A stretch of DNA of 64,000 nucleotides. Origin: Eledone cirrhosa. Taxonomy: Eukaryota. Position 1 is the first letter of the stretch, and every line of letters starts with the position of its first letter. The notes under the pieces were generated by a model, which saw only the letters and a program-made list of their open reading frames with translations, ran no database searches and was not told the DNA's origin. The stretch lies in contig OZ024749.1 of the NCBI GenBank assembly GCA_964016885.1, positions 7,812,001 through 7,876,000 of the forward strand. The letters are read 5' to 3'. Below are positions 937-61,443 of the stretch, one piece after another. A program made the position numbers and the translations under genes.

Positions 937-1015
<79 letters not shown>
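269..1015. repeat. (TA)n microsatellite with TACA interruptions
   Basis: Direct reading; the YI/HI-rich ORFs here are artefacts of the repeat. Confidence 0.98.
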
Positions 1016-3615
1016 GGTAGGATAGAAGAGGTCCTTGACAAACTGGACCAGGGTCTCAACATCCTACTGCTGGGAGACTTCAACCTACCAAAGGTCAAAT
1101 GGCCTGAGGGCCACCTCCTCCCTGGAATGACGTCAATAGAACAGAGACAGACGGAATCCCTGCTGGCCCTCACACACAGGCTGTTCATGGAGCAAGCAAT
1201 ACTCCTCCCAACAAGAGGCGAACATGTCCTGGACCTCTGTTTTACAAACAACGAAGTGCTCATCCACAATGTAAAGGTGACACCAACAATTCTCTCGGAT
1301 CATAACTTGGTAGAGCTAATGATATGTGGTCCAAGAGAACCAACAGAGACAAAACCACCAAGAAGCTCCGGGACGCTATCCAGCCTTAACTTCTACGGGG
1401 CTGACTGGAAGAAGATTAAGAGTGAAATCCGGAAGCAAACATGGAGTGCAAACATCGCCACACAAGACACTAACACACAATTTCAACACTTCATGACAAC
1501 GATACACACCATATGCAAAAAGTGTGTCCCGGAGAAAGAGGCAACAGACACAAAAATCTTATTCCCAGAGATAGGAAAATCCTTATGAGACGTAGAACTA
1601 AACTCTCAAACCAGTTGAATAGTCAACAAAACCAAAACAAGAAGGAATCCTATTTGAAACGTGCACTACTTGACACCGAGATTGCACTCAAGCTTTCACA
1701 TGAGAATGAGAGGGCAAGGAAAGCGAACAGGGCCATAGAAAACATTAAAACAAACCCTAAGGCCTTCTTTAAATTTGCAAAAGAAACTGCCTCAGTACAC
1801 TGCAAGATTGGACCACTCTTCCACACGGACGGTTCATTAACCGAAAATCCCCAAGAGATATGTGAAATACTGAACGAACAGTACAAAAGTGTCTTCACAT
1901 GTCCACTGAGGCACATGCAAATAACGAAGCCAGAGGAGTTCTTTGATGCCACAACACTACATCAAGAAATGGCAACCATCAACCACATAGACATAACGGA
2001 GGAGGATGTGGTGTACGCCATTGATGAAATTAGAACAGACTCGGCTGCTGGACCTGATGGATTCCCAGCAGTTCTCCTAAAAATATGTAAGCGGGCCTTA
2101 GCAACTCCACTGAAGATGCTCTTCAGAAGCTCCTTGGCTAGCGGTGTACTACCCAGGGAGCTGAAAGAAGGCACAATATGCCCTATCCATAAAGGAGGTA
2201 GTAGAGCGGAGGCCAAGAACTATAGGCCAGTCTCCCGGACGTCGCATATCAGTAAGGTCATGGAGCGAGTCGTCAGAAAGAAACTAATCACTTTGCTCGA
2301 AGAAAATGACCGCCTGACTAGCACGCAACATGGCTTCCGCCCAGGAAGAAGCTGCCTTACACAGCTGCTACATCACTACGACTGGGTACTGAGACAACTA
2401 CTAGACAGCTCACATGTAGACGTGATATATCTTGACTTTGCGAAGGCCTTTGACAAGCTCGACCACGGAATGATATGTCACAAACTACACGGACTCGGCA
2501 TAACTGGAAAAGTAGGTGAGTGGCTGTATGGCTTCCTAAGGGACAGAAGCCAGGCAGTCGCAGCAAATGGGGCCCTCTCGAGGGAAACACCGATAACAAG
2601 TGGGGTGCCTCAGGGGACAGTCCTGGGGCCACTACTGTTTTTGGTGGCTCTCTCGGACATGCCCTCTGTGGTGCATGCAACAACATCCCTCACTAGCTAT
2701 GCTGATGACACTAAGGTAGCACAGGCAATCAAAAACCCGGCTGACGCTGCCCTCTTACAGCAGGATCTGGATGCCATATACAGATGGGCCGAAGAAAACA
2801 ACATGCAGTTTAATGCTGGCAAATTCCAAGCCCTACAATACAAACCTGCAAACACAAACACAAATATAGCGGAACACAGCTACACAGGACCAGGAGGGAC
2901 CGATATCCCCGTGTCAAAATCGATACGAGACCTGGGCATAGACATGAGCGATGATGCATCTTTTTCTTCACACATCATGAAGGTGGCGACAGCATGTTGA
3001 CGATTCGCTGGCTGGATCTTGAGGACTTTCATTACAAGAGATCGAGACACCATGTTGACACTGTGGAGGACTTTTGTCCTAAGCCGCCTGGACTACTGCT
3101 CCCATCTGTGGTCACCCCATAGTGTCAAACTAACCACTGAGCTTGAGGCAATCCAGCGAAGCTACACGAAGAGGATTGCCAAGATGAGGGAGACAAGCTA
3201 CTGGGAGAGGCTGAAGGAACTGAACCTCTACTCCTTGGAGCGAAGACGGGAGAGATACGCAGTGATCTACATGTGGAAAATCCTGGAGGGACTAGCACCA
3301 AACTTTGGAATTGGGAGCTGGACCAACCGTCGAACAGGACGTCACTGTGTAGTGCCAAAGTTCCCGTCTTCCACATCTAGAATAAGGAGCAGGTATTGCA
3401 ATAGCCTGGGATTCAAGGGCCCTCAACTCTTCAACAGGCTACCGAGGCATCTGCGAGACTTGCATGACGTGGAGGTGGATGTCTTTAAGAAACATCTCGA
3501 CACCTTGTTATCCAGGATCCCGGATGAGCCCACAGCAAGACACGAGGGAAACCTAAGGGCAGCAGCAACAAACTCCCTCCTACACCAGTGGCCAACCTAT
3601 ACAGGCTGGAGATAA
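1016..3615 (+). pseudogene. Disrupted APE-RT ORF2 of LINE family 1
   Basis: ORFs 1127-1588, 1513-3000 and 3019-3615 are collinear. There is a frameshift near 1540 and an in-frame TGA at 2998-3000 (likely CGA>TGA). Confidence 0.9.
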
Positions 3616-3690
3616 AATGTGTAGCAACAAGGGCGGTGCCCCAGCATGGCCTCAGCCGGATGGCTGAAACAGGTAAAAGAGTAAAAGAGT
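1016..3690 (+). mobile_element. 5'-truncated CR1-group LINE (family 1): ORF2 from late APE endonuclease through RT, plus 3' UTR
   Basis: LLGDFNLP and LDLCFTN..SDHNLV (APE); [39 protein letters not shown] (RT); C-terminal LYSLERRRERY and PDEP. The tail is GTAAAAGA repeats running into (TA)n. Confidence 0.93.
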
Positions 3691-4023
3691 ATATATATGT
3701 ATGTTTATATATATATATGTATGTTTATATATATGTATGTATATATATAATATATGTATGTTTATATATATATATGTATGTTTATATATATATATGTATG
3801 TATATATATATATGTATGTATATATATATATGTATGTATATATATATATATGTATGTATATATATATATTTTTATGTGTATATATATATATGTATGTATA
3901 TATATATATACATACATATATATGTATATATATATACATACATACATAAATATATATGTATGTATGTATGTATATATATATGTGGATGTACATGTATACA
4001 TACATATATATATACATACATAA

Positions 4024-4054
<31 letters not shown>

Positions 4055-4128
4055 CATATATATATATATACATACATATATATATACATATATATATACC
4101 ATATATATATACATACATATATATATAC

Positions 4129-4159
<31 letters not shown>

Positions 4160-4333
4160 CATACATATATATATATACATACATATATATATATACATAC
4201 ATATATATATATACATACATATATATATACATATATATATATATATACATATATACATACATGCATATATATATACATACATATATATATATACATACAT
4301 ACATATATATATATACATATATATATATACATA

Positions 4334-4374
<41 letters not shown>

Positions 4375-4377
4375 ATA
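3690..4377. repeat. (TA)n array with TATG then TACA variants
   Basis: Direct reading. Confidence 0.97.
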
Positions 4378-4601
4378 CAATTCAGGATTTGGGCACCATG
4401 GCCATTCGAGAAGAGAATTACTGTTTGCGGAGACATATCCGGGTGTGGGTGGTTTGTCCGGGATTACTTGGAGGAATTTGTCCAAAGACTTCTTGAATTT
4501 TGTGTGGTCAGTTTCTGTTTTGACGTGTCCTGGTGTGATGTTGAAGAGAGCAGGGCCGATTGAGGTGAAATAATTGTGCCGTATTGTTGTTATGAGTTGC
4601 G
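4378..4601 (-). mobile_element. Fragment of the ORF2 C-terminus of CR1-group LINE family 2
   Basis: Near-identical to 18895-19120; encodes [29 protein letters not shown]. Confidence 0.92.
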
Positions 4602-6284
<1,683 letters not shown>

Positions 6285-6378
6285 TAGAGAATCGTAAAAG
6301 CACATAACGTTATATGCTTTTTCTATGAAAATTAGTAGTGGGCAGACTAATTTGCATAGAAAGGCCGGAAGATAGGTA

Positions 6379-6423
6379 AATATTGCTGATGAGATGTAAC
6401 AACATCGAAACTAGTTCAATATT
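6379..6423 (+). ncRNA. Type I hammerhead ribozyme (intact core)
   Basis: AATATTG-CTGATGA-GATGT-AACA-ACATC-GAA-ACTAGT-T-CAATATT: 7-bp helix I, 5-bp helix II, palindromic helix III, GUU site. Confidence 0.88.
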
Positions 6424-6657
6424 CCTTGTCTGGCTTTCTGGAGAATAGAGGAAATGTGTTTCCTCAAAAACCAGTATGACTCTAAAAACCGGTTTGTCTG
6501 TGTGTTTACATACAGAATAGCTGGACACTCACAGTAAAGTGACCAGTGAAAAACTCGGTACATCTACATATGTATACGTGTGTGTATTCATATGCATACT
6601 AGTATTTCAGTATACATATGTGGATGTACATTTTTAACTTAATTATATATATATACA

Positions 6658-6883
6658 TTTAGCAGTATTAGTTGTAGATGTTATCGAGATGCAAGTGACA
6701 TAATACCAGCAGAAATTAGAGATGAAATATACGTTTATTTTTTGTTGTAGCACAAACAATGGTGTTGTACAGAGGCTGGTATCTGGCGTGTGATCTGTCG
6801 GCTTTCCAGTGGCTGTCTGTCTTTTTTTTCTGTCGTGCTCAACCGGCGTTGTTCTATCAAAGAGCGTGAGGTGTCTTACTACA
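6658..6883 (-). repeat. 3' LTR
   Basis: Direct repeat of 11939-12164 with 9 substitutions by manual alignment. Confidence 0.95.
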
Positions 6884-7112: not shown

Positions 7113-10100
7113 CTAAATATAGACGGTGCTGCACAGTTTTTTGGGCCAGTGGACCCTACGACCTGAACGGGTTGTGGTCTTGTAACGTGGCGATGGTGGT
7201 GGTGTAGGGACAGGCGATGATGGTGGATCAGGAACCGTCGTTCGCTCAACAGGCAAATACGAAGGGGTTCGTGGATCAGGAACCACAGCGTCCGTATCAA
7301 GGTGCGCCTGCTTAAGCCTGTCTAATGTAACTGTCACCCTGGACCCCTTAATATCTAACGTGAAATGCTTAGCCGTGCGCGCTAAGACACGGTAAGGTCC
7401 AGTGTAAGGCTGTGTGAGCGGGGGCTTCACCGTATCATTCCTTACAAAGACATGCGTCCACGAGGCAATATCCCTCGGGACAGCAGTCTTGACAGATTGT
7501 TTCCTAGTGTCCATTGGCGGCAAATCCTGGAAATAGGAGCACAAACGGGACACGTAGGAAGCGTGATCTTGGGCATCAAGATCGATAGGGGCAAGCATTT
7601 GCCCGGGCAACGTCAGAGGGGCACCGTACAGTACTTCGGCCGGTGAAAATCCAAAGTCGACCTTCACCGTTGACCGAATCCCTAGTAGCACAATAGGGAG
7701 GTACTCGCTCCAATGCGCCGAGTCCATTGAGGCCATTAAGGAGGCCTTCAGTTGGCGGTGAAAACGCTCCACCATACCATTCGAAGCGGGATGGTATGCC
7801 GTAGTTCGAATGCGTTTAGCACCAATTATTTTTGACAGCTCGAGGAAAAGGCTCAACTCGAACTGTCGTCCACGGTCGGTAGTTATTGTGGATGGAACTC
7901 CATAACGAGAGATCCATCCAGACACAAGAGCACGTGCTGTTGTCTCCGCGGTGATGTTTTTCAAGGGGATGGCCTCAGGCCATCTCGAAAAACGGTCAAT
8001 GACGGTAAGTAGATAAGAAAAACCATCGCTGACAGGCCAAGGTCCCACTATGTCAATATGAATATGCGAAAAACGCGCATCTGGGTTAGCAAAGGTACCC
8101 AGGGGAGCCTTGACGTGTCAATGGACCTTTGATCTCTGGCAAGCGACGCAGGAACGGCACCAAGCAGCAATTTCACGCCTCATATTTGGCCAGAAAAATC
8201 TAGCTGATATGAGCTTTGCTGTGGCAGAAGATCCTGGATGCGAGATACAATGTAATCCCAGAAACACGGTCCGACGATGATTCTCTGGAACGAAGGGCCT
8301 AGGCACGTCCAAAGAGACGTCGCAGAGAATTTGGCCAACTGCAGTCGACAGAGGCAAGTATTTCATCTCGCAATTCGCAAACTCAGGCGATGTGACATCC
8401 AATGACTCAAGGGGAGGCTGATCCGCAGCCAAACGAGTCAGATCTATGTCAGAGGGTGACGAGATCGCTGTCACGGGTAAGCGGGACAAAGCATCGGCCG
8501 CTGTATTTAGTGAAGCCGGAATGTGCTGGATATCACTCGTATATTGCGAGATGAAATCAAGGTGTCTCGTCTCTCTGGGCGAATATTTATCCGCCTTCGC
8601 TCTCAAAGCAAAAGTCAATGGTTTATGGTCAGTGAGGATAGTAAATTGTCTACCCTCTAGCACATGTGAAAAATGTTTCACGGCCAAATAGATGGCTAAA
8701 AGCTCTCTTCCAAAGGTGCTGTAGCGCGTCTCAGCAGGATTTAGCTTTTTGGAAAAAAACTCCAGCGGTTGCTGGTAACCATTGAAGTTTTGCTGTAGTA
8801 CTGCGCCCACAGCGATATCCGATGCATCAACACAAAGCGTTAGCTTTGCACCGGGTACCGGATGAGTCAGTAACGAAGCATTAGCCAAAACAGTTTTGGC
8901 GTGCTGAAAATCAGCAAGTTGAGTGTCTGTCAAAGAAATATCTTTGTTCTTCCTCCGACAATTTTTCAAAATTTCTGTCAGGGAGAAGAGCAACTTGGCA
9001 CAATTTGGCACGAAACGCCTATAAAAGTTAACCAGACCTAAGAACTGGCGTAACTGACGTAGTGAGGTCTGTGGAGGCAAATCCTCTATGACCTTAACTC
9101 GCTCAGGCCGGGGTCGAATTCCGTCAGCATCGATGACGTGACCCAAGAAAGTCAGTGACTCAGCGCCAAAAACACATTTGGGTGCATTAAGCTGCACGTT
9201 ATACGCCTTCAATCGGCGGAAAAGAAGATTCAAATGGTGCGTATGCTGCTCTGGAGAAGAACTAGCAATGAGCAGATCGTCAATATAGGTATAGACGAAA
9301 TCGAGGCCGCGAGTAACCTCATCCATAAACCGCTGAAAAGTACTAGCAGCATTCCTTAATCCGAACGGCATAGTCAAAAACTCGAAAGACCCAAATGGCG
9401 TAACTATAGCCGTTTTTGGAATGTCACTTTTATGGACAGGAATTTGATGGTACGCACGAATTAAATCCAGTTTGGAGAATATCTTGCATCCCTGCAACGA
9501 AGACGCAAAGTCTTGCAGATGAGGGATAGGATAACGGTCCGGTACCGTTATCGAATTCAGGCGTCGATAATCTCCAGTAGGTCTCCAATCGCCATTCGCT
9601 TTCGGTACCATGTGTAATGGGGACGCCCACGGGCTCGTGGACGGACGAATAATCCCCATTTGCAGCATATGATCAAATTCTGATCGTGCTGCTTTGAGTT
9701 TGTCCGGAGGCAAGCGACGAGGGCGAGAGAAAACGGGAGCACCAGTTGTAGATATGAAGTGCTCCGTGGTATGAGTAGGTTCATCAAATCGAAAATTCCC
9801 CTGTGTCAGTTGCGGGAACGAGTTCAACAACGCATGGAAAGGATCACCGGTGTTAGCAAGAAAAAATATCGGGCTAACCGTTGGGACTCCTGCTGCCTTG
9901 CCAACAACAGTTAATCCCGTGATGCCATCAATTAGGCGTTTACCACGAAGGTCCACCGTCAATGAAAAATGGTGGAGAAAATCCGCGCCTAGAATCGGAT
10001 ACGGCAAGGCAGCGACAGTAAATATCCATTTAAACTCGCGCCGCAGATTACGAAACTGCAAAGGTAACGAGATTTGTCCGAAAGTTCAAATCGGCGAACA

Positions 10101-10304
10101 ATTTACTGCTTGCAACTCAATAGGCGTCTCAGGGGGAGTCTCCTTCATACAACACACAGGCCATACGGAACAAGCTGCACCTGTGTCAACCAGAAAAGCT
10201 CTACCTGACAGCAGGTCCTCAATGAAAAAGTGGCGGTTAGATGTTTCGCAGAGCGCACTATCCGCCGTTAGTGACTCTGGTCGTCTTTTCCCTCGTAAGC
10301 ACAA
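7113..10304 (-). pseudogene. pol: pol: protease, RT, RNase H, integrase; two in-frame stops
   Basis: FLVDTGAA; [21 protein letters not shown]; DASD..RELLAI; HPG..C..C; [22 protein letters not shown]; GPY. TGA stops at 10086-10088 and 8118-8120. Confidence 0.95.
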
Positions 10305-11046
10305 GGAGGCCTACAACGGGCGGCTTTCTTACCATATCTTTCATGGTAATAACAATATGTTGTTCCTGGTGTGTTGGAAGGGCCACGGTGGCGAGAAGTT
10401 GAATAACGTCGAGAACGGCTCCTCTGCTGTCCAAAGGAACTGAATTCCGTGCACAACTCCGCCATTTGACGAGTCATGGCTTCCATAGTGGTGATTAATT
10501 TGTCATCAGACGCTGATGAGCGTGATTGAGGAAGAGAAGAGGAAGCAACGTACTTTGGCTTCGAAGTGTCTCTCTTCGTCACCTCTACAATTTTGTCAGC
10601 AGAGACAGCAATGTGATCCAGGGTATTCACCTCTAGCATATGGGCTAGGATCGCCTGTACCTCTTGAGGTAGGCGAGAGAAGAACAATTGCTTCAGTAAA
10701 GGGCTATCCTGATCTTGGGAGCGCTCAAATCCCGCAAATGCCGGAGAAAAGCGGTTGGGGTCCTGTCACCTAATCGTTCGTCCTCGATCAGTGACCGAAA
10801 ACGACTCTCTACCGACTTACAATTCCTCCTCAAAATCTCGCCCTTCAAAAACTCATACGTCAAGTCAAAGGGGGGGGGGTCTGTAATTAGGTATTGGACC
10901 GAATCTGCTAGATTAGGGGGAAGGCCGCTAATCAGTACAGCGAGGCGCTGGTCAGATTCGGTCTTACAGACCGTAAAATACGCCTGTAACTGGGCAAACC
11001 ACATTTTAGGTTTTCCAGTAAAGGCGGGCAAATGTGGTACATTCAT
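10268..11046 (-). pseudogene. gag: gag (frameshifted near 10720)
   Basis: LPAFTGKPKMWFAQLQAYF, LGDRTPTAFLRHLR, FFSRLPQEVQAIL, CYYHERYGKKAARCRPPC. Confidence 0.88.
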
Positions 11047-11922
11047 GTCAACTTTTAAAATCAAAACAAATATATACATATATATCGAAAGAGCAATTAA
11101 TGCACCCTTGTACAGTGAAAAGAGAACAGCCAATATTGAGAAAAAGTTAACGGGCAAAAAGAAACCGACATTCAAAACATAAGGAAATATTCAAAATACA
11201 TAAAATACAGATATATATCTTTTAAAAAAAAATGTTTCTTTCAACGTCTGTCCCCTCGCGTTGCTTCAACGAACCAGCCAAATCAAATAAGGTAAAAAAG
11301 AGGAAGAAAAAAAATGTTGTTTTTTTTTTTAAATATATCCGCGTTGGATATCAACAAAGGTAGCCAGTGGCTAAAAATCCCTTAGAAAAAGGTAAGGCAT
11401 GTATATCCCCATGCGGGGCAGTTATGTTCACAAAAAAAAGTTTAGTCTCTTCTCTCTTGATCAGTCATGGAACACACACGCAATTCAAAATATGTGTCCG
11501 TCACAAAACTGGGAAGGAACGCAACGCCACCTTGGAAAAATACACTTTTTCTTTTTTCTTCTGTAAGTTGCGAAAAAGTTGGCAACGGAAATGGAATATT
11601 CAAGTGAATAAAAAAAAGTTGCTCTAAATTATCGACACGAATGAATCGTTTTGATATTTCCGATGTGTGGTGGTTTGCGTCGGTAAGGATATGAAGCTGC
11701 CACTCACTATTCCCTGTTTTGGTCAGGGGTTAAACAATGTTGTCGCTGCTGATGCTGCTGTCGTTGTTGTTGTCGATTGTAGCAAAAAATCTTTTGAAAT
11801 ACTACTAACTTTTCGATAATTTTAAAAGGAATATTTTTTATTTTCACAAGTTGCAAAAAAAAAAGGCCGACAATGTGGCAATAAAAGTTCAATTGATGAA
11901 AAAGAAGGGCTGCGTTAAATTC

Positions 11923-12211: not shown

Positions 12212-16490
<4,279 letters not shown>

Positions 16491-18159: not shown

Positions 18160-18485
18160 ATATTGTTATGCTTTGGGAGTGTCATGTTGCCAATAAGAAA
18201 CACACGCACCAGTTGTTTCACGTCAATTTATTATAATAAATTTATAAGTTTCTGGTTGGTTGGTTGATTCCACAACCAGATAGTTGTTTATATATAGTCA
18301 TAGTTCCACAACCAGATAGTTGTTTATATATAGTCATAGTTCTTTCGTCACACACTCTGTGACCTCTTCAGTGACTGGGGATTCCCTCTTTGTTTCTATG
18401 CCTCTCCTTTGTTCTATCCTACAATATCGGTTTCAACACACGATTTCAGATAAAGAATCTTGCTAAACAAATTCAGAAACGAAAT
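18160..18485 (-). mobile_element. Family A copy with internal duplication and inverted terminus
   Basis: Homologous to 15368-15620; 18420-18485 is the reverse complement of 15311-15374. Confidence 0.8.
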
Positions 18486-35489: not shown

Positions 35490-35865
35490 AATATTGTTAT
35501 ACTTTGGGATGTTGCCAATAAGAAACACACGCGCCAATTGCTTTCACTTCAATTTATTATAAATTTCCGGTTGTTTTTCACACACAAAACCAAGATGGCG
35601 TAGGACAGAACAATGGAGAGGCACAAAACAAAGAAAAGAATCCACAGTCACTGAAGAGGTCACAGAATGTGTGACGAAAGAACTTTGACAATATATGAAC
35701 AACCATCCGGTTGTGAAACCAACCAACCAACCGGAAATTTATAATAAATTGAAGTGAAAGCAATTGGCGCGTGTGTTTCTTATTGGCAACATGACCCTCT
35801 CAAAGTATAACAATATCGGTTTCAACACACGTTTTCAGATAAAGTATCTTGCTAAACAAATTCGA
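35490..35865 (+). mobile_element. Family A fold-back copy with an HHR at 35647-35689
   Basis: GTCA-CTGAAGA-G-GTCACA-GAATG-TGTGAC-GAA-AGAACT-T-TGAC; inverted 5' arm at 35490-35574. Confidence 0.82.
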
Positions 35866-41798: not shown

Positions 41799-42827
<1,029 letters not shown>

Positions 42828-45800
42828 TTAGAAATTGGAATAAATGCTCTGAAATAGCGATATATATGTGAATATAGACATAGAATATTCGAAAATATTC
42901 TGTATGTTTATAATAAACATTTTGAAGACCTAATCGCTATAGAATAGAATACGTCACGTATTACAATTAGATTCTCGATAAAAGCAAGGGAAGTAATCTA
43001 CGCGTTTCATTCTTGTTAGAAATCGTCAGGACTACATATCCAGTGCTTTTATCGAGAATGACACAGCTAGAGACTTATAGAATACTTAGCTGTGTACAGG
43101 AACTGGTTTGAAAGAGCGGTTGCCGGTCCGGCAGAAATTAGAAATTGGAATAAATGCTCTGAAATAGCGATATATATGTGAATATAGACATAGAATATTC
43201 GAAAATATTCTGTATATTTATAATAAACATTTTGAAGACCTAATCGCTATAGAATAGAATACGTCACGTATTACAATTAGATTCTCGATAAAAGCAAGGG
43301 AAGTAATCTACGCGTTTCATTCTTGTTAGAAATCATCAGGACTACATATCCAGTGCTTTTATCGAGAATGACACAGCTAGAGACTTATAGAATACTTAGC
43401 TGTGTACAGAAACTGGTTTGAAAGAGCGGTTGCCGGTCCGGCAGAAATTAGAAATTGGAATAAATGCTCTGAAATAGCGATATATATGTGAATATAGACA
43501 TAGAATATTCGAAAATATTCTGTATGTTTATAATAAACATTTTGAAGACCTAATCGCTATAGAATAGAATACGTCACGTATTACAATTAGATTCTCGATA
43601 AAAGCAAGGGAAGTAATCTACGCGTTTGATTCTTGTTAGAAATCATCAGGACTACATATCCAGTGCTTTTATCGAGAATGACACAGCTAGAGACTTATAG
43701 AATACTTAGCTGTGTACAGGAACTGGTTTGAAAGAGCGGTTGCCGGTCCGGCAGAAATTAGAAATTGGAATAAATGCTCTGAAATAGCGATATATATGTG
43801 AATATAGACATAGAATATTCGAAAATATTCTGTATGTTTATAATAAACATTTTGAAGACCTAATCGCTATAGAATAGAATACGTCACGTATTACAATTAG
43901 ATTCTCGATAAAAGCAAGGGAAGTAATCTACGCGTTTCATTCTTGTTAGAAATCATCAGGACTACATATCCAGTGCTTTTATCGAGAATGACACAGCTAG
44001 AGACTTATAGAATACTTAGTTCTAACAAGAATGAAACGCGTAGATTACTTCCCTTGCTTTTATCGAGAATCTAATTGTAATACGTGACGTATTCTATTCT
44101 ATAGCGATTAGGTCTTCAAAATGTTTATTATAAACATACAGAATATTTTCGAATATTCTATGTCTATATTCACATATATATCGCTATTTCAGAGCATTTA
44201 TTCCAATTTCTAATTTCTGCCGGACCGGCAACCGCTCTTTCAAACCAGTTCCTGTACACAGCTAAGTATTCTATAAGTCTCTAGCTGTGTCATTCTCGAT
44301 AAAAGCACTGGATATGTAGTCCTGATGATTTCTAACAAGAATGAACGCGTAGATTACTTCCTTGCTTTTATCGAGAATCTAATTGTAATACGTGACGTAT
44401 TCTATTCTATAGCGATTAGGTCTTCAAAATGTTTATTATAAACATACAGAATATTTTCGAATATTCTATGTCTATATTCACATATATATCGCTATTTCAG
44501 AGCATTTATTCCAATTTCTAATTTCTGCCGGACCGGCAACCGCTCTTTCAAACCAGTTCCTGTACACAGCTAAGTATTCTATAAGTCTCTAGCTGTGTCA
44601 TTCTCGATAAAAGCACTGGATATGTAGTCCTGATGATTTCTAACAAGAATGAAACGCGTAGATTACTTCCCTTGCTTTTATCGAGAATCTAATTGTAATA
44701 CGTGACGTATTCTATTCTATAGCGATTAGGTCTTCAAAATGTTTATTATAAACATACAGAATATTTTCGAATATTCTATGTCTATATTCACATATATATC
44801 GCTATTTCAGAGCATTTATTCCAATTTCTAATTTCTGCCGGACCGGCAACCGCTCTTTCAAACCAGTTCCTGTACACAGCTAAGTATTCTATAAGTCTCT
44901 AGCTGTGTCATTCTCGATAAAAGCACTGGATATGTAGTCCTGATGATTTCTAACAAGAATGAAACGCGTAGATTACTTCCTTGCTTTTATCGAGAATCTA
45001 ATTGTAATACGTGACGTATTCTATTCTATAGCGATTAGGTCTTCAAAATGTTTATTATAAACATACAGAATATTTTCGAATATTCTATGTCTATATTCAC
45101 ATATATATCGCTATTTCAGAGCATTTATTCCAATTTCTAATTTCTGCCGGACCGGCAACCGCTCTTTCAAACCAGTTCCTGTACACAGCTAAGTATTCTA
45201 TAAGTCTCTAGCTGTGTCATTCTCGATAAAAGCACTGGATATGTAGTCCTGATGATTTCTAACAAGAATGAAACGCGTAGATTACTTCCCTTGCTTTTAT
45301 CGAGAATCTAATTGTAATACGTGACGTATTCTATTCTATAGCGATTAGGTCTTCAAAATGTTTATTATAAACATACAGAATATTTTCGAATATTCTATGT
45401 CTATATTCACATATATATCGCTATTTCAGAGCATTTATTCCAATTTCTAATTTCTGCCGGACCGGCAACCGCTCTTTCAAACCAGTTCCTGTACACAGCT
45501 AAGTATTCTATAAGTCTCTAGCTGTGTCATTCTCGATAAAAGCACTGGATATGTAGTCCTGATGATTTCTAACAAGAATGAAACGCGTAGATTACTTCCC
45601 TTGCTTTTATCGAGAATCTAATTGTAATACGTGACGTATTCTATTCTATAGCGATTAGGTCTTCAAAATGTTTATTATAAACATACAGAATATTTTCGAA
45701 TATTCTATGTCTATATTCACATATATATCGCTATTTCAGAGCATTTATTCCAATTTCTAATTTCTGCCGGACCGGCAACCGCTCTTTCAAACCAGTTCCT

Positions 45801-46028
45801 GTACACAGCTAAGTATTCTATAAGTCTCTAGCTGTGTCATTCTCGATAAAAGCACTGGATATGTAGTCCTGATGATTTCTAACAAGAATGAAACGCGTAG
45901 ATTACTTCCCTTGCTTTTATCGAGAATCTAATTGTAATACGTGACGTATTCTATTCTATAGCGATTAGGTCTTCAAAATGTTTATTATAAACATACAGAA
46001 TATTTTCGAATATTCTATGTCTATATTT
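42828..46028. repeat. Inverted tandem array of a 310-bp hammerhead-containing unit (retrozyme-like)
   Basis: Period 310 (42831, 43141, 43451, 43761); inversion at 44019/44020; then ~6.5 copies in the opposite orientation (period 308-310). Confidence 0.95.
44624..44666 (+). ncRNA. Type I hammerhead in the 310-bp unit; also at 44316, 44934, 45243, 45553, 45863 (+) and 42993, 43303, 43613, 43923 (-)
   Basis: GTAGTC-CTGATGA-TTTCT-AACA-AGAAT-GAA-ACGCGT-A-GATTAC, with helix I extended by ATTCTCGATAAAAGCA/TGCTTTTATCGAGAAT. Confidence 0.87.
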
Positions 46029-47412
<1,384 letters not shown>

Positions 47413-49450: not shown

Positions 49451-52400
49451 TGAATGAAAATCATGCTACTCAATTGCACACATCAGCTGTAACAAACCCA
49501 AACTCGCAGAAATTCGATACAGTAATGAATGAAAGCAGTTTTTTAGGCATAATCTACCAACTACAACAACAGCTGTACTCCATACAGATGACTCAGCAAA
49601 ACCAGGCAACATTGATACAAAGCCTGACACCTGGACTTACAGGGCACATACAACAAATACAGACAGCCCAGCAGACCGAATATCCAGTCAGCACAGTCCC
49701 AGCAACTACAACAGTCTTGCCATCAATAGGGCAGATGTATCCGGTACAACAAGCATAATAACAGCAAATATCCAGGGTCTTTATCCAAAAACAAAACAGT
49801 GTAAAGTCCCTTTCTTGGAAGAATTAGCAACAGAAAACAACTCCAAAATAATTGGAATTACTGAAAGTCATCTCAACGAAAACATCCGCAACAGCGAAAT
49901 CACAATCAATGGATTCAACATCTTCAGATGTGATAGACAAGGCAGATCCCATGGGGGCGTTATCATGTATATCCATGATACCTATGCATGCATAGAACTT
50001 GTCAATGAATCAAATGCCTACTGGAACCTGCTGTGCATAAAAAATCATCCAACTTAATTCAGTTGTAACAATAATGTACAGACTGCCAAACAGCCCAACA
50101 TTATCCTTCACAGAGCCACTGACAAAGCTCCAACAAATTCTGGGAAACATGGCGAGTCCAATGCCAGACATTATCTTCCTTGGTGACTTCAACTTCCCTA
50201 ACATCATCTGGCCACATGGACACATACTAAAACTGGGGACAAAAGCTGAACAAATACAGGCAGCCAAACTGTTGGAAGTCACAGAGAAATTATACCTCAA
50301 ACAAATGATGACAGAAGCAACTAGAAATAATAATACGATCGACTTGGTTTTCACCAACAACGAGGACACGCTATTTGACATTCACTCAACCCCAACAATC
50401 CTTTCAGACCACAATATTTTTGAAATGCATTTACACATTGGTAATGAGCCCAATGCCACAACTCTTAAACAAAAGGACATGCCAAAGCTATGCAGGTATG
50501 ATTATCACCAGGCAAATTGGGAAACTATTAACAACCAGTTACAAATCATTGACTGGGATCTCTACCTTACTGGGCCAGATAAACACAAGAAATTCTTAAA
50601 CAAGATCGAAGAAATATGTGCAAAAAATATTCCTCTTAAGAAAACCAAATCCACAAAAAAACCTGTACCACCGGAGCGAAAGATCCTGATGCGCAAAAGG
50701 TCAAGACTAAGAAACAAAACATCTAAGCTGGCATCAAAACATGAACTACAGAAAGTCCTTGACCAAATATACAGATTAGAAGACAATCTAAAACAACACT
50801 ATGATGAAGAACGTAACAATGCAGAAAAGAGAGCCATAGAAAACATCAAGAAAAATCCAAAATGTTTCTACAGTTTTGCAAAGAAATACTCGAATACCAA
50901 GTCAACAATAGGATCTCTCCAGAGACAAAATGGGGATGTAGTGAATAACCCTATTGAAATGGCAGAAATGTTGGGTCAACAGTATAAAAGTGTCTTCAGT
51001 GAGCCATCTAAAACCATGAAGATCCATGACCCAGGAGAATTCTTCAAGGATATCGACCATACTAAACCTACCCTATCCGACATTGATTTCAACCCAGAAG
51101 ACATAGAAAGAGCCATAGACAAGCTCTCCATGCACTCGGCTGCGGGGCCTGATGGTTTCAATGCCATGATACTTAAAAACTGCAAGGTACAATTGTTGAA
51201 ACCCCTTTACATGATATGGAGGGAATCTATGGAGAATGGCAAAATATCAAATACATATAAAGAAGCACACATAACTCCAATACATAAAGGGGACAGCAAA
51301 TCAAAACCAAAGAACTACCGACCAATCTCACTGACATCACACATTATCAAGGTCTTCGAAAGAATAGTTCGTGGAAAACTGGTTGAGTTCCTGGAATCCA
51401 ACAATCTGATGAATTGCAACCAGCATGGATTCAGGTTAGGTAGATCATGTCTTTCCCAACTACTGGCACACCATGACCAAATCCTAGAAAATCTAGAGAA
51501 TGGATACGACACAGATGTTATTTACCTTGACTTTGCCAAGGCATTTGACAAGGTAGATCATGGCATCCTGGGACACAAACTTCGAAAGCTAGGAGTAGGA
51601 GGAAAAGTTGGTACATGGATACAAGAGTTCCTTACAAATAGAACTCAAACAGTCACTGTGAATGGAACCCATTCAACACCATCACCTGTAACCAGCAGTG
51701 TTCCTCAGGGTACAGTACTCGGCCCAATCCTGTTTCTCATCCTCATCTCTGACATAGATGAAGATACAACCAGCAACGTCTCATCCTTTGCTGATGACAC
51801 CAGGGTCATAAGACAAATCAAAGACGAGGTGGATACAGAGGCCTTACAAAAGGACCTGACCACCATATACAAATGGCAGGAAACAAACAACATGTTGTTC
51901 AATGATAAGAAGTTTTAACTAATTCGCTACGGAACAGATCAAGATCTGAAAAATACAACAAACTACAGAAACCCATCCGGACAACAAATAATGGAAAAAC
52001 AGTGTGTGAAAGATTTAGGCATCCACATGGGAACCAGCCTAAAATTCAGAGAACACCTTGACTCAATCTGTCTTACTGCAAGAAAGTACAGCGGGTGGAT
52101 CTTGCGCACCTTCAAATCAAGAGATACCTCAACAATGAAAACCCTCTGGAACAGTATGATACTTCCGAGGATTGACTACTGTTCTCAGTTGTGGTCACCA
52201 ACAACAAAGTGCCAACTATCTAAGATGGAATCGCTCCAAAGAAATTTTACCTCATACTTCTCAGAAACGAGGGACCTGGATTATTGGCAAAGACTCAAAA
52301 CCTTGAAGATGTACTCAATAGAAAGAAGATTTGAGCGATACCGAATTATATACATTTGGAATATGATAGAGCAAAAGGTGCCAAACTTTGGTATCAAAAG

Positions 52401-60696: not shown

Positions 60697-61181
60697 AGTT
60701 GAAAAAAATGAAAACGAAATTTCATTTCTCACTCTTAGTATGGCACTTACTTAAATGTAAGTATGTATGTATACGTACATACATATATGTATACGGACGT
60801 ACAGTAGCATGCATATATATATATATATATACATACAGGTACACATACATATATGCACGCATCAGTTTAGCGGACGCTTATTATAACGCCGCTTTGTTCG
60901 TTTGTCAACAAACTGAATAGCCTGAATTTATGCCATACGGTGTTAAGGCAACCACGTCACCTTTTTGTTCAACACTGACACAGGAACGATGTACTAGTTT
61001 CAAGCTTGTTAGCTATCATCAGCACCGTTTACCCATCTGCCAGATAGTTGAACGTTCGAAAGAATATACTTTCCTTATGAAAATTAACGGCTGAGCAGCC
61101 TAATTTGCATATTGAGTGAGTTAAATCGGTCAGGCATACCGAAATCGATAAGTTGAAAAAAATGAAAACGAAATTTCATTT
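60697..61181 (-). mobile_element. 454-bp monomer plus 31-bp terminal redundancy, HHR-bearing (retrozyme-like)
   Basis: AGTTGAAAAAAATGAAAACGAAATTTCATTT occurs at 60697-60727 and 61151-61181; internal HHR. Confidence 0.78.
60985..61029 (-). ncRNA. Type I hammerhead ribozyme
   Basis: Minus strand: AACGGTG-CTGATGA-TAGCT-AACA-AGCTT-GAA-ACTAGT-A-CATCGTT. Confidence 0.87.
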
Positions 61182-61257: not shown

Positions 61258-61443
61258 AATTGTTTCTACTTTAGGCACAAGGCCAGCAATTACCCAGTGT
61301 ATTACTGGTACTTTACTTTATCGACCCCGTAAGGATGAAAGGCAAAGTTAACATCGGCGGGATTTGAACTCAGACCGTAAAGGGACGTAACTATGCTGGA
61401 AAGCATGTCCGACCCTCTACCGATACTGCCATTTCACCGCCCT
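61258..61443 (-). mobile_element. tRNA-derived SINE (family S1)
   Basis: Homology to the other copies. Confidence 0.9.

Follow-up and report, generated by a model that had tools for sequence, protein, structure and literature searches.

A truncated, partly inverted copy of a putative non-LTR retrozyme family carrying an octamer hairpin in Eledone cirrhosa

Introduction

A hammerhead ribozyme core in a short non-coding island next to (TA)n tracts raises the question of whether the island is a ribozyme in its own right or a fragment of a larger element, and of what the hairpin beside the core might be for. Such an island lies in a 64,000-nt stretch of the Eledone cirrhosa genome (assembly GCA_964016885.1, contig OZ024749.1, positions 7,812,001 to 7,876,000), which was analysed at full length and is called the window here. 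Judged by its sequence, the island belongs to a non-LTR retrozyme family, named family A in the following, of which it is a young copy, truncated and in part inverted. The evidence for this assignment, the way in which the family appears to insert, and the possible roles of its hairpin are presented below. Published work is cited by PMC number or DOI.

The window insert

The features of the insert are as follows, with unit positions numbered from the cleavage site; E1 is one of the two fixed 3' ends of the family.

3690-6286: (TA)n tract of 2.6 kb, ending at the left duplication copy
6271-6285, + strand: left copy of a probable 15-bp target-site duplication, with the identical 15 letters at 6644-6658
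6285-6644: truncated family A copy (L001), made of a forward arm and an inverted piece
6285-6360, − strand: inverted arm, unit positions 333-408, containing the octamer hairpin and a TATA-like stem-loop
6323-6359, − strand: inverted-repeat octamer hairpin, with ATTTGCAT at 6350-6357 on the + strand (ATGCAAAT in unit sense)
6357-6644, + strand: forward arm, unit positions 407-466 followed by 1-228, stopping at E1
6358-6439, + strand: type I hammerhead with an extended helix I (6358-6366 with 6432-6439; 6379-6385 with 6417-6423)
6386-6416, + strand: catalytic core with helix II, minimal palindromic helix III (ACUAGU) and GUU triplet; predicted cleavage at 6416/6417
6644-6658, + strand: right copy of the probable 15-bp target-site duplication, with the letters of 6271-6285

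The letters of 6285-6570 are as an earlier note on this DNA had described them, but the element, which that note ended at 6570, actually reaches 6644. Neither is the insert isolated, as had been claimed: at least 89 genome matches were listed, many of them in tandem arrays with a period of 465-467 bp, and in most of these matches bases 1-76 and 73-286 of the island fall on opposite strands, as the similarity search of the genome places them in normal units. The two arms, of 288 nt (forward, ending at E1) and 76 nt (inverted), are joined via a 3-4-letter overlap, where the inverted outer end at unit position 408 meets the forward start at 407. The copy is 99% identical to the array units. The flanking duplication is graded as probable only, since its letters are of low complexity. 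The short arm could alternatively be due to a later deletion. No frame of 100 aa lies wholly within the copy, and the island 6285-6570 folds more stably than any of 200 shuffles (z = -5.19). The copy is a fragment of less than one monomer, and there is no second ribozyme next to it.

Frames of an LTR-type retroelement (RT, RNase H, integrase, DUF7041) lie at 7113-11190 on the minus strand, starting about 470 bp to the right of the insert, and no link between the two was seen. LINE endonuclease-RT frames are found at 977-3000 and 50041-51918. In a scan of the whole window with Rfam, the 150 listed of 687 matches were all to microRNA models and under their cut-offs.

Family A in the genome

The exact family A ribozyme core occurs in 9,269 copies in the 3.0-Gb genome, while the control gave 0. 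In the array loci the 465-467-bp unit carries one core each, and arrays of more than 30 units occur. The unit is low in GC (164 of 458 called positions, 36%), and its predicted circular form is highly structured, with 66% of the bases paired and an energy of -150.8 kcal/mol. No tRNA was found in the three array loci considered (3/3), and, as judged from their anatomy, the insertions lack LTR-like direct repeats at their ends. A search for the pattern of hairpin plus core returned 0 stretches in metagenome and 0 in viral contigs, and allowing wider hairpin spacers (15-30 nt) gave 18 matches, all of them variants of family A or of its sister family B. One family A copy (L205) sits inside a U1 gene array locus.

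By the tested features, family A appears to be a previously undescribed animal non-LTR retrozyme, an assignment made from sequence. The family was not found in the literature covered, on octopus and cephalopod hammerheads, Penelope ribozymes, octamer pLTR promoters and retrozyme editing and mostly from outside subscription journals; supplements (for example the motif tables of PMC4209133, PMC7229834 and 10.64898/2026.07.22.740005) or repeat libraries may contain it. The window locus itself is ordinary, and it is the family that is useful.

Two fixed ends

Family A was mapped at 98 non-redundant loci, 10 of them cut by the locus edge. As these were picked by similarity or motif searches, insertions without the hairpin are under-sampled. 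Head-to-head arrangements make up 62 of the 88 complete loci, and their outer ends follow a simple rule: 53 of the 62 have one end called E1 at one side and the other, E2, at the opposite side, against a single E1/E1 and no E2/E2 locus. In the remaining eight, which include the window copy, one end lies elsewhere. E1 falls at unit positions 223-235 (mostly 228 or 233) and E2 at 297-303 (mostly 302), so that a tail of 69-74 nt lies between them, with a distinct 13-bp hairpin inside it that the two fixed ends flank. At least four TA units follow 126 of the 149 3' ends. The 149 inner 5' ends are scattered round the unit and do not clearly pile up at the cleavage site (5 within about 4 nt, where about 3 are expected), so the genome bears no trace of cleavage in vivo.

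The arms of one insertion diverge by a median of 0.85% (59 loci) and units in the same orientation by 0.6%, while different insertions diverge by 3.5%. Among 61 head-to-head insertions, 19 have target duplications with non-TA letters (the clearest of 12-15 bp), 34 have pure TA duplications and 8 have none. In family B the ends lie at aligned positions: 12 of 40 loci have the E1/E2 combination and no locus is a clean E1/E1 or E2/E2, with one recognised end in 13, none in another 13, and 2 ambiguous loci. The paired-end rule (53/62, with both arms from one template lineage) matters in that it names exact candidate RT start sites for retrozyme mobilisation.

A probable Penelope-like link

Penelope-like elements are described as leaving inverted truncated copies with a tail at one end and a bias towards microsatellites (PMC8557442, where it is towards (TA)n; PMC3846280), the usual tail being 30-40 bp (PMC8557442). 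For the anole element, two internal RT start sites that give rise to a tail have been reported in vitro (PMC11167929). The E1/E2 insertions resemble this "tail" signature, and point to a Penelope-type reverse transcription of circular or multimeric RNA.

Frames for a Penelope-like RT-endonuclease are abundant in the genome, with more than 10,000 first-look GIY-YIG candidates genome-wide. The longest, up to about 900 aa, are of what we take from their motifs to be the Neptune type, and a fragment presumably of the Hydra type is also present. A partner for the family was sought in 41 loci, namely the 30 best GIY-YIG loci, 10 long-frame loci and the Hydra-type one; none of these, most of which lack a full pLTR, had a pLTR homologous to families A, B or C. 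A single strong match turned up, L123, and proved to be a separate family C insertion. A likeness between the family A tail and the Hydra-type pLTR end was weak, AT-rich and picked post hoc, with 1 of 1,000 shuffles as good; it would put E2 on the inner end of that element, and was set aside. The Hydra-type fragment (L300:140-3990) is itself a head-to-head insertion with a tail of about 100 nt at one end, and at least 40 near-identical copies of its pLTR suggest recent activity.

The octamer hairpin

A second hairpin of the same kind lies near 61 kb in the window, in a copy of family B.

60697-61181, − strand: single family B copy, unit of about 474 bp, GUA triplet; outer limits approximate
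61022-60992, − strand: hammerhead core
about 61076-61111: hairpin, with ATTTGCAT at 61103-61110

Near 61270 there is what we presume to be a SINE. Family B, with 721 first-look candidates, is about 85% identical to a third family, C, with a unit of 422-430 bp. Families A and B align end to end over the unit, with 68% of the aligned columns identical and a score of 324 against 109 +/- 14 for 100 shuffles, and all three families are homologous end to end. The hairpin common to the insert and the 61-kb copy is therefore explained by the descent of A and B from a common ancestor. In B and C (e.g. at 61015-61002 of the window) a U-U mismatch replaces the G-C pair that closes helix II, as likewise described for axolotl HHR_Amex2 (PMC7229834).

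On the core-sense strand of a normal unit the sequence is TATGCAAATTAG..TAATTTTCATA, and the hairpin stands before the core in all three families as TATGCAAATT(A/G)G..TAAT(T/A)T(T/G)CATA, whereas in the insert it is flipped. The claim of a hairpin with an octamer that recurs near 61 kb holds as far as both copies are present, but in the insert the hairpin is upstream of the core only because the piece is inverted. The exact motif occurs 17,392 times in the A and B form and 11,955 times in the C form, with 0 in the controls. Between A and B, no stretch of identity is longer than its arms (12 and 11 nt): all 23 arm letters are shared, against a background of 68%, while the spacer varies in length and sequence. 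The conservation that the earlier note had proposed to check was thus found, the arms being conserved in three families (12 sequences). Within family A, 86 loci that had been chosen without regard to the right arm show 2 minor calls in 1,105 for it, an invariance equalled by 10 of 445 stretches compared. The invariance of the left arm is inflated, because this arm formed part of most search patterns.

In the 12 sequences, none of the 13 hairpin pairs changed on both sides, two changed on one side and 3 are broken in some families; both recurrent one-sided changes yield G-U pairs. Such a pattern is better explained by a sequence-specific binding site than by structure alone, although the sample is small and related. 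Most likely, the hairpin is an inherited cis-element retained in sequence, a putative protein-binding site. The earlier note had suggested an RT-recognition or a promoter element. The first of these is less favoured, because E1 and E2 flank the tail hairpin and the octamer hairpin starts 31 nt beyond E2, outside the tail.

One possible reading, which we would not yet call probable, is that the hairpin is a DNA promoter or enhancer in which inverted POU-type sites drive the transcription of each unit. The sites ATGCAAAT and ATGAAAAT or ATGCATAT lie 13-14 bp apart, immediately ahead of a TATA-like stretch and of the point where helix I starts, and the octamer variants are all confined to ATG(A/C)A(A/T)AT, which we take to match POU sites. 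The long identical arms, the invariant right arm and the contrast between 0 of 13 hairpin pairs and 6 of 14 ribozyme pairs changing on both sides would agree with this, with the reservation on the left arm given above. A precedent would be newt satellite 2, in which an octamer is reported to drive transcription of the repeat. An snRNA-type internal promoter is cited for this satellite in PMC2220036. Against a promoter of this kind, an octamer lies within 420 nt in only 1 of the 10 distinct U1/U2 promoters of the genome. A profile of the U1/U2 proximal element built from these 10 promoters scored at best -15.7 on units A, B and C, no higher than shuffles (mean best -20.8, 95th percentile -12.2), so that an snRNA-type promoter of the host U1/U2 kind was not found in the three units. 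The U1/U2 promoters (L159-L209) have TCA(G/A)T at -56 to -58, AATTA near -90, a TA-rich stretch near -28 and a TTA(C/T)(C/T)TCCCTT-like motif near -240, and are mostly without an octamer.

A rather unlikely alternative has the hairpin acting as an RNA stem that, on the circular RNA, is recognised sequence-specifically by the RT, by a ligase or by a host protein. The sense strand folds at -8.5 kcal/mol alone and the stem also forms in the circular unit, the one-sided changes keep G-U pairing, and 31 nt from E2 would be within reach of an RT bound to the circle. Nevertheless, compensatory changes are absent, the mismatches shift between families, and the fixed ends flank the other hairpin, that of 13 bp in the tail. 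It is similarly unlikely that the hairpin has no present function and is merely inherited, its apparent conservation coming from chance or from gene conversion between the arms. Here it counts that the homology between A, B and C extends over the whole unit, that only three related families were compared and that A has other short stretches just as invariant; set against this are the 23 of 23 arm letters that A and B share despite a divergent spacer.

The hammerhead ribozyme

The earlier note had claimed every core nucleotide and a G-C pair closing helix II. Both were confirmed, with CUGAUGA at 6386-6392, GAAA at 6407-6410, U16.1 at 6415 and U17 at 6416, and with helix II at 6393-6406 closed by G6393-C6406. 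From these core letters and the alignment to Rfam Hammerhead_HH9 (RF02275), the call of a hammerhead and the predicted cleavage site after U6416 are judged to be right. The HH9 match at 6368-6439 has 36.5 bits (E 9.5e-8 in a search of 421 bases), which is below the gathering score of 52. The term "fully canonical" passes over helix III, in which a single A-U pair carries a palindromic CUAG loop, and over the GUU triplet. As a cleavage triplet GUU is weaker than GUC; it was the commonest one in the family A sample (56 of 63 segments). Likewise, the extended helix I stands in its 7-bp proximal part, while the distal CCGGAA/UUCUGG register loses one pair in 34 of 97 loci; an alternative distal register, AGAAAGGCC with GGCUUUCU, keeps a variable pair in 98 of 98. 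The UA bulge of helix I and the UAACAA loop are common to the families.

Over the 98 loci, the CUGAUGA letters show 1 minor call in 686, helix II of family A covaries (49 A-U, 49 U-A), and in helices I and II the 6 of 14 pairs changed on both sides come from the comparison of 12 sequences across families. This covariation bears on the origin of the arrays. They could be satellite DNA that arose from a stranded pLTR and expanded by unequal crossing-over, with the ribozyme as a passenger, a route discussed in 10.64898/2026.07.22.740005. Arrays of more than 30 units do exist, and local expansion may contribute to the long ones, but short insertions are dispersed in their thousands, with fixed outer ends, arms placed head to head and target duplications. 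Together with the covarying ribozyme helices and a parent pLTR that was not found in the 41 Penelope-like loci, they make this origin very unlikely.

As for activity, the computed energies of helix III are +5.3 kcal/mol for the hairpin and -4.8 kcal/mol for the ACUAGU duplex between two copies, and in the computed fold helix III is not stable enough for monomer activity. A helix III of this type is reported to cleave well only as a dimer (PMC7229834; PMC4209133), and an axolotl ribozyme of the same build was 6% cleaved in one hour as a monomer and efficient as a dimer (PMC7229834). A head-to-tail dimer of the intact unit would probably cleave in vitro, an expectation that is kept at this cautious level because 8 of 9 predicted frog retrozyme dimers failed to do so (10.64898/2026.07.22.740005). 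The window copy by itself should cleave weakly. It had been put forward as the best candidate for a first activity test; being a rearranged fragment with no adjacent ribozyme and a helix III of the dimer-dependent type, it is instead a poor one. That the locus is a stand-alone, efficient monomeric hammerhead working with its upstream hairpin is highly improbable, for in spite of the intact core, the G-C closing pair, the 7-bp helix I, the UA bulge, the UAACAA loop and possible cleavage via intermolecular dimers at high concentration, helix III is computed to be unstable inside a single copy, the axolotl monomer is inefficient (PMC7229834), and the hairpin is inverted at this locus.

Other hammerheads were seen in the window. 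At 42827-46038 there is a head-to-head array with a 310-bp unit and a type I hammerhead (palindromic ACGCGU helix III, GUA triplet), with 8 cores listed; this retrozyme-like family is unrelated to A, and the array is a ready-made substrate for a dimer test. A tandem array with a 252-bp unit (15458-16214) and single copies (18337-18371, 35651-35685) have CUGAAGA-type hammerhead cores and are pLTR-like. A perfect 35-bp hairpin of the 252-bp array attracts the top microRNA-model matches.

A proposed life cycle

Taken as a whole, we consider it very probable that the locus is explained by a family A retrozyme mobilised by Penelope-like elements, of which the window contains a truncated, partly inverted copy with its inherited octamer hairpin. 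Under this explanation, the tandem arrays would be transcribed, and two hammerheads in a multimer would pair via the palindromic ACUAGU and release unit-length RNA, by analogy with the axolotl, which may then circularise. A Penelope-like RT/GIY-YIG protein, acting in trans, would nick both strands of a (TA)n target, and each nick would prime reverse transcription at one internal site, E1 (228/233) or E2 (302), on either side of the tail hairpin. Both cDNAs would copy the same template over a variable distance before being joined head to head; this template would have to be circular or an uncleaved multimer, because the arms cross the cleavage site repeatedly. The window copy would be a short, atypical product with a junction like those of twin priming.

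A closed-loop contig of unit length was found once in each of the runs X4 and X5 (which carry other organism labels), among 4 runs examined, at a depth of 5-10 and 95-99% like family A; a circle, a uniform tandem array or carry-over would all fit these contigs, the kind of run being unrecorded. A-to-I editing of the hairpin (A>G in a UAG context in X4, X5 and X6) was rejected, as 605 of 3,798 genomic copies already have G, and the symmetric genomic spectrum (38 A>G and 35 T>C sites) lends it no support either.

The movement of animal retrozymes is described as unresolved in 10.64898/2026.07.22.740005. A more specific picture, which is tentative and on balance improbable, is that of a self-promoting circular-RNA parasite, with a POU-site promoter in each unit, a circle made by the dimeric hammerhead, a dimeric Penelope-like protein and one fixed start per strand. 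The octamer pair, with its 17,392 and 11,955 exact matches, is a candidate internal promoter. If true, the picture of such a parasite would offer direct genomic evidence on retrozyme mobilisation and would mean that some 30,000 paired POU-type sites are scattered through the genome, with a POU-site promoter tying transcription to particular cells, e.g. neural or germline ones.

Comparison with known systems

Family A shares with newt satellite 2 an octamer in the repeat. It differs in that its octamer-like sites are two in number, inverted, and fold into a hairpin, and in that the proximal element of the host U1/U2 genes was not found in the unit. The core, the helix I bulge and the layout of loop II align with Rfam HH9 over the full model, while helix III of the insert is without five of the model positions and the score is 36.5 bits against the gathering score of 52.

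Family A is most readily compared with the animal non-LTR retrozymes (Cervera & de la Pena 2020, PMC7229834; Li, Clavereau & Pollet 2026, 10.64898/2026.07.22.740005). In both, the tandem units are non-coding, carry a single type I hammerhead and are low in GC (36% here); copies run into the thousands, target duplications exceed 4 bp, the predicted circle is highly paired, and Penelope-like elements are present in the same genome. At 465-467 bp its unit exceeds the 150-450 bp given in PMC7229834 and lies within the 51-972 bp of 10.64898/2026.07.22.740005. It differs from these retrozymes in that a parent pLTR was not found (41 loci), and in its fixed paired ends and octamer hairpin, which the accessible parts of these sources do not describe. 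The one-pair helix III with a palindromic tetraloop is also that of the newt satellite 2 and axolotl HHR_Amex1 type of hammerhead, a poor monomer and an efficient dimer (PMC7229834).

As regards insertion, the head-to-head truncated arms, the two internal 3' ends, the one-end tail, the AT-rich or (TA)n targets and the type I hammerhead are shared with endonuclease-bearing Penelope-like elements (Poseidon_Ac, PMC11167929; the Neptune, Hydra and Naiad clades, PMC8557442). Unlike the Penelope-like elements, family A has no reading frame, a tail of 69-74 nt and multiple rounds of a short unit. Finally, 53 of 62 insertions have E1 and E2 once each, whereas in the in vitro work described in PMC11167929 the two strands were not seen to differ in start site.
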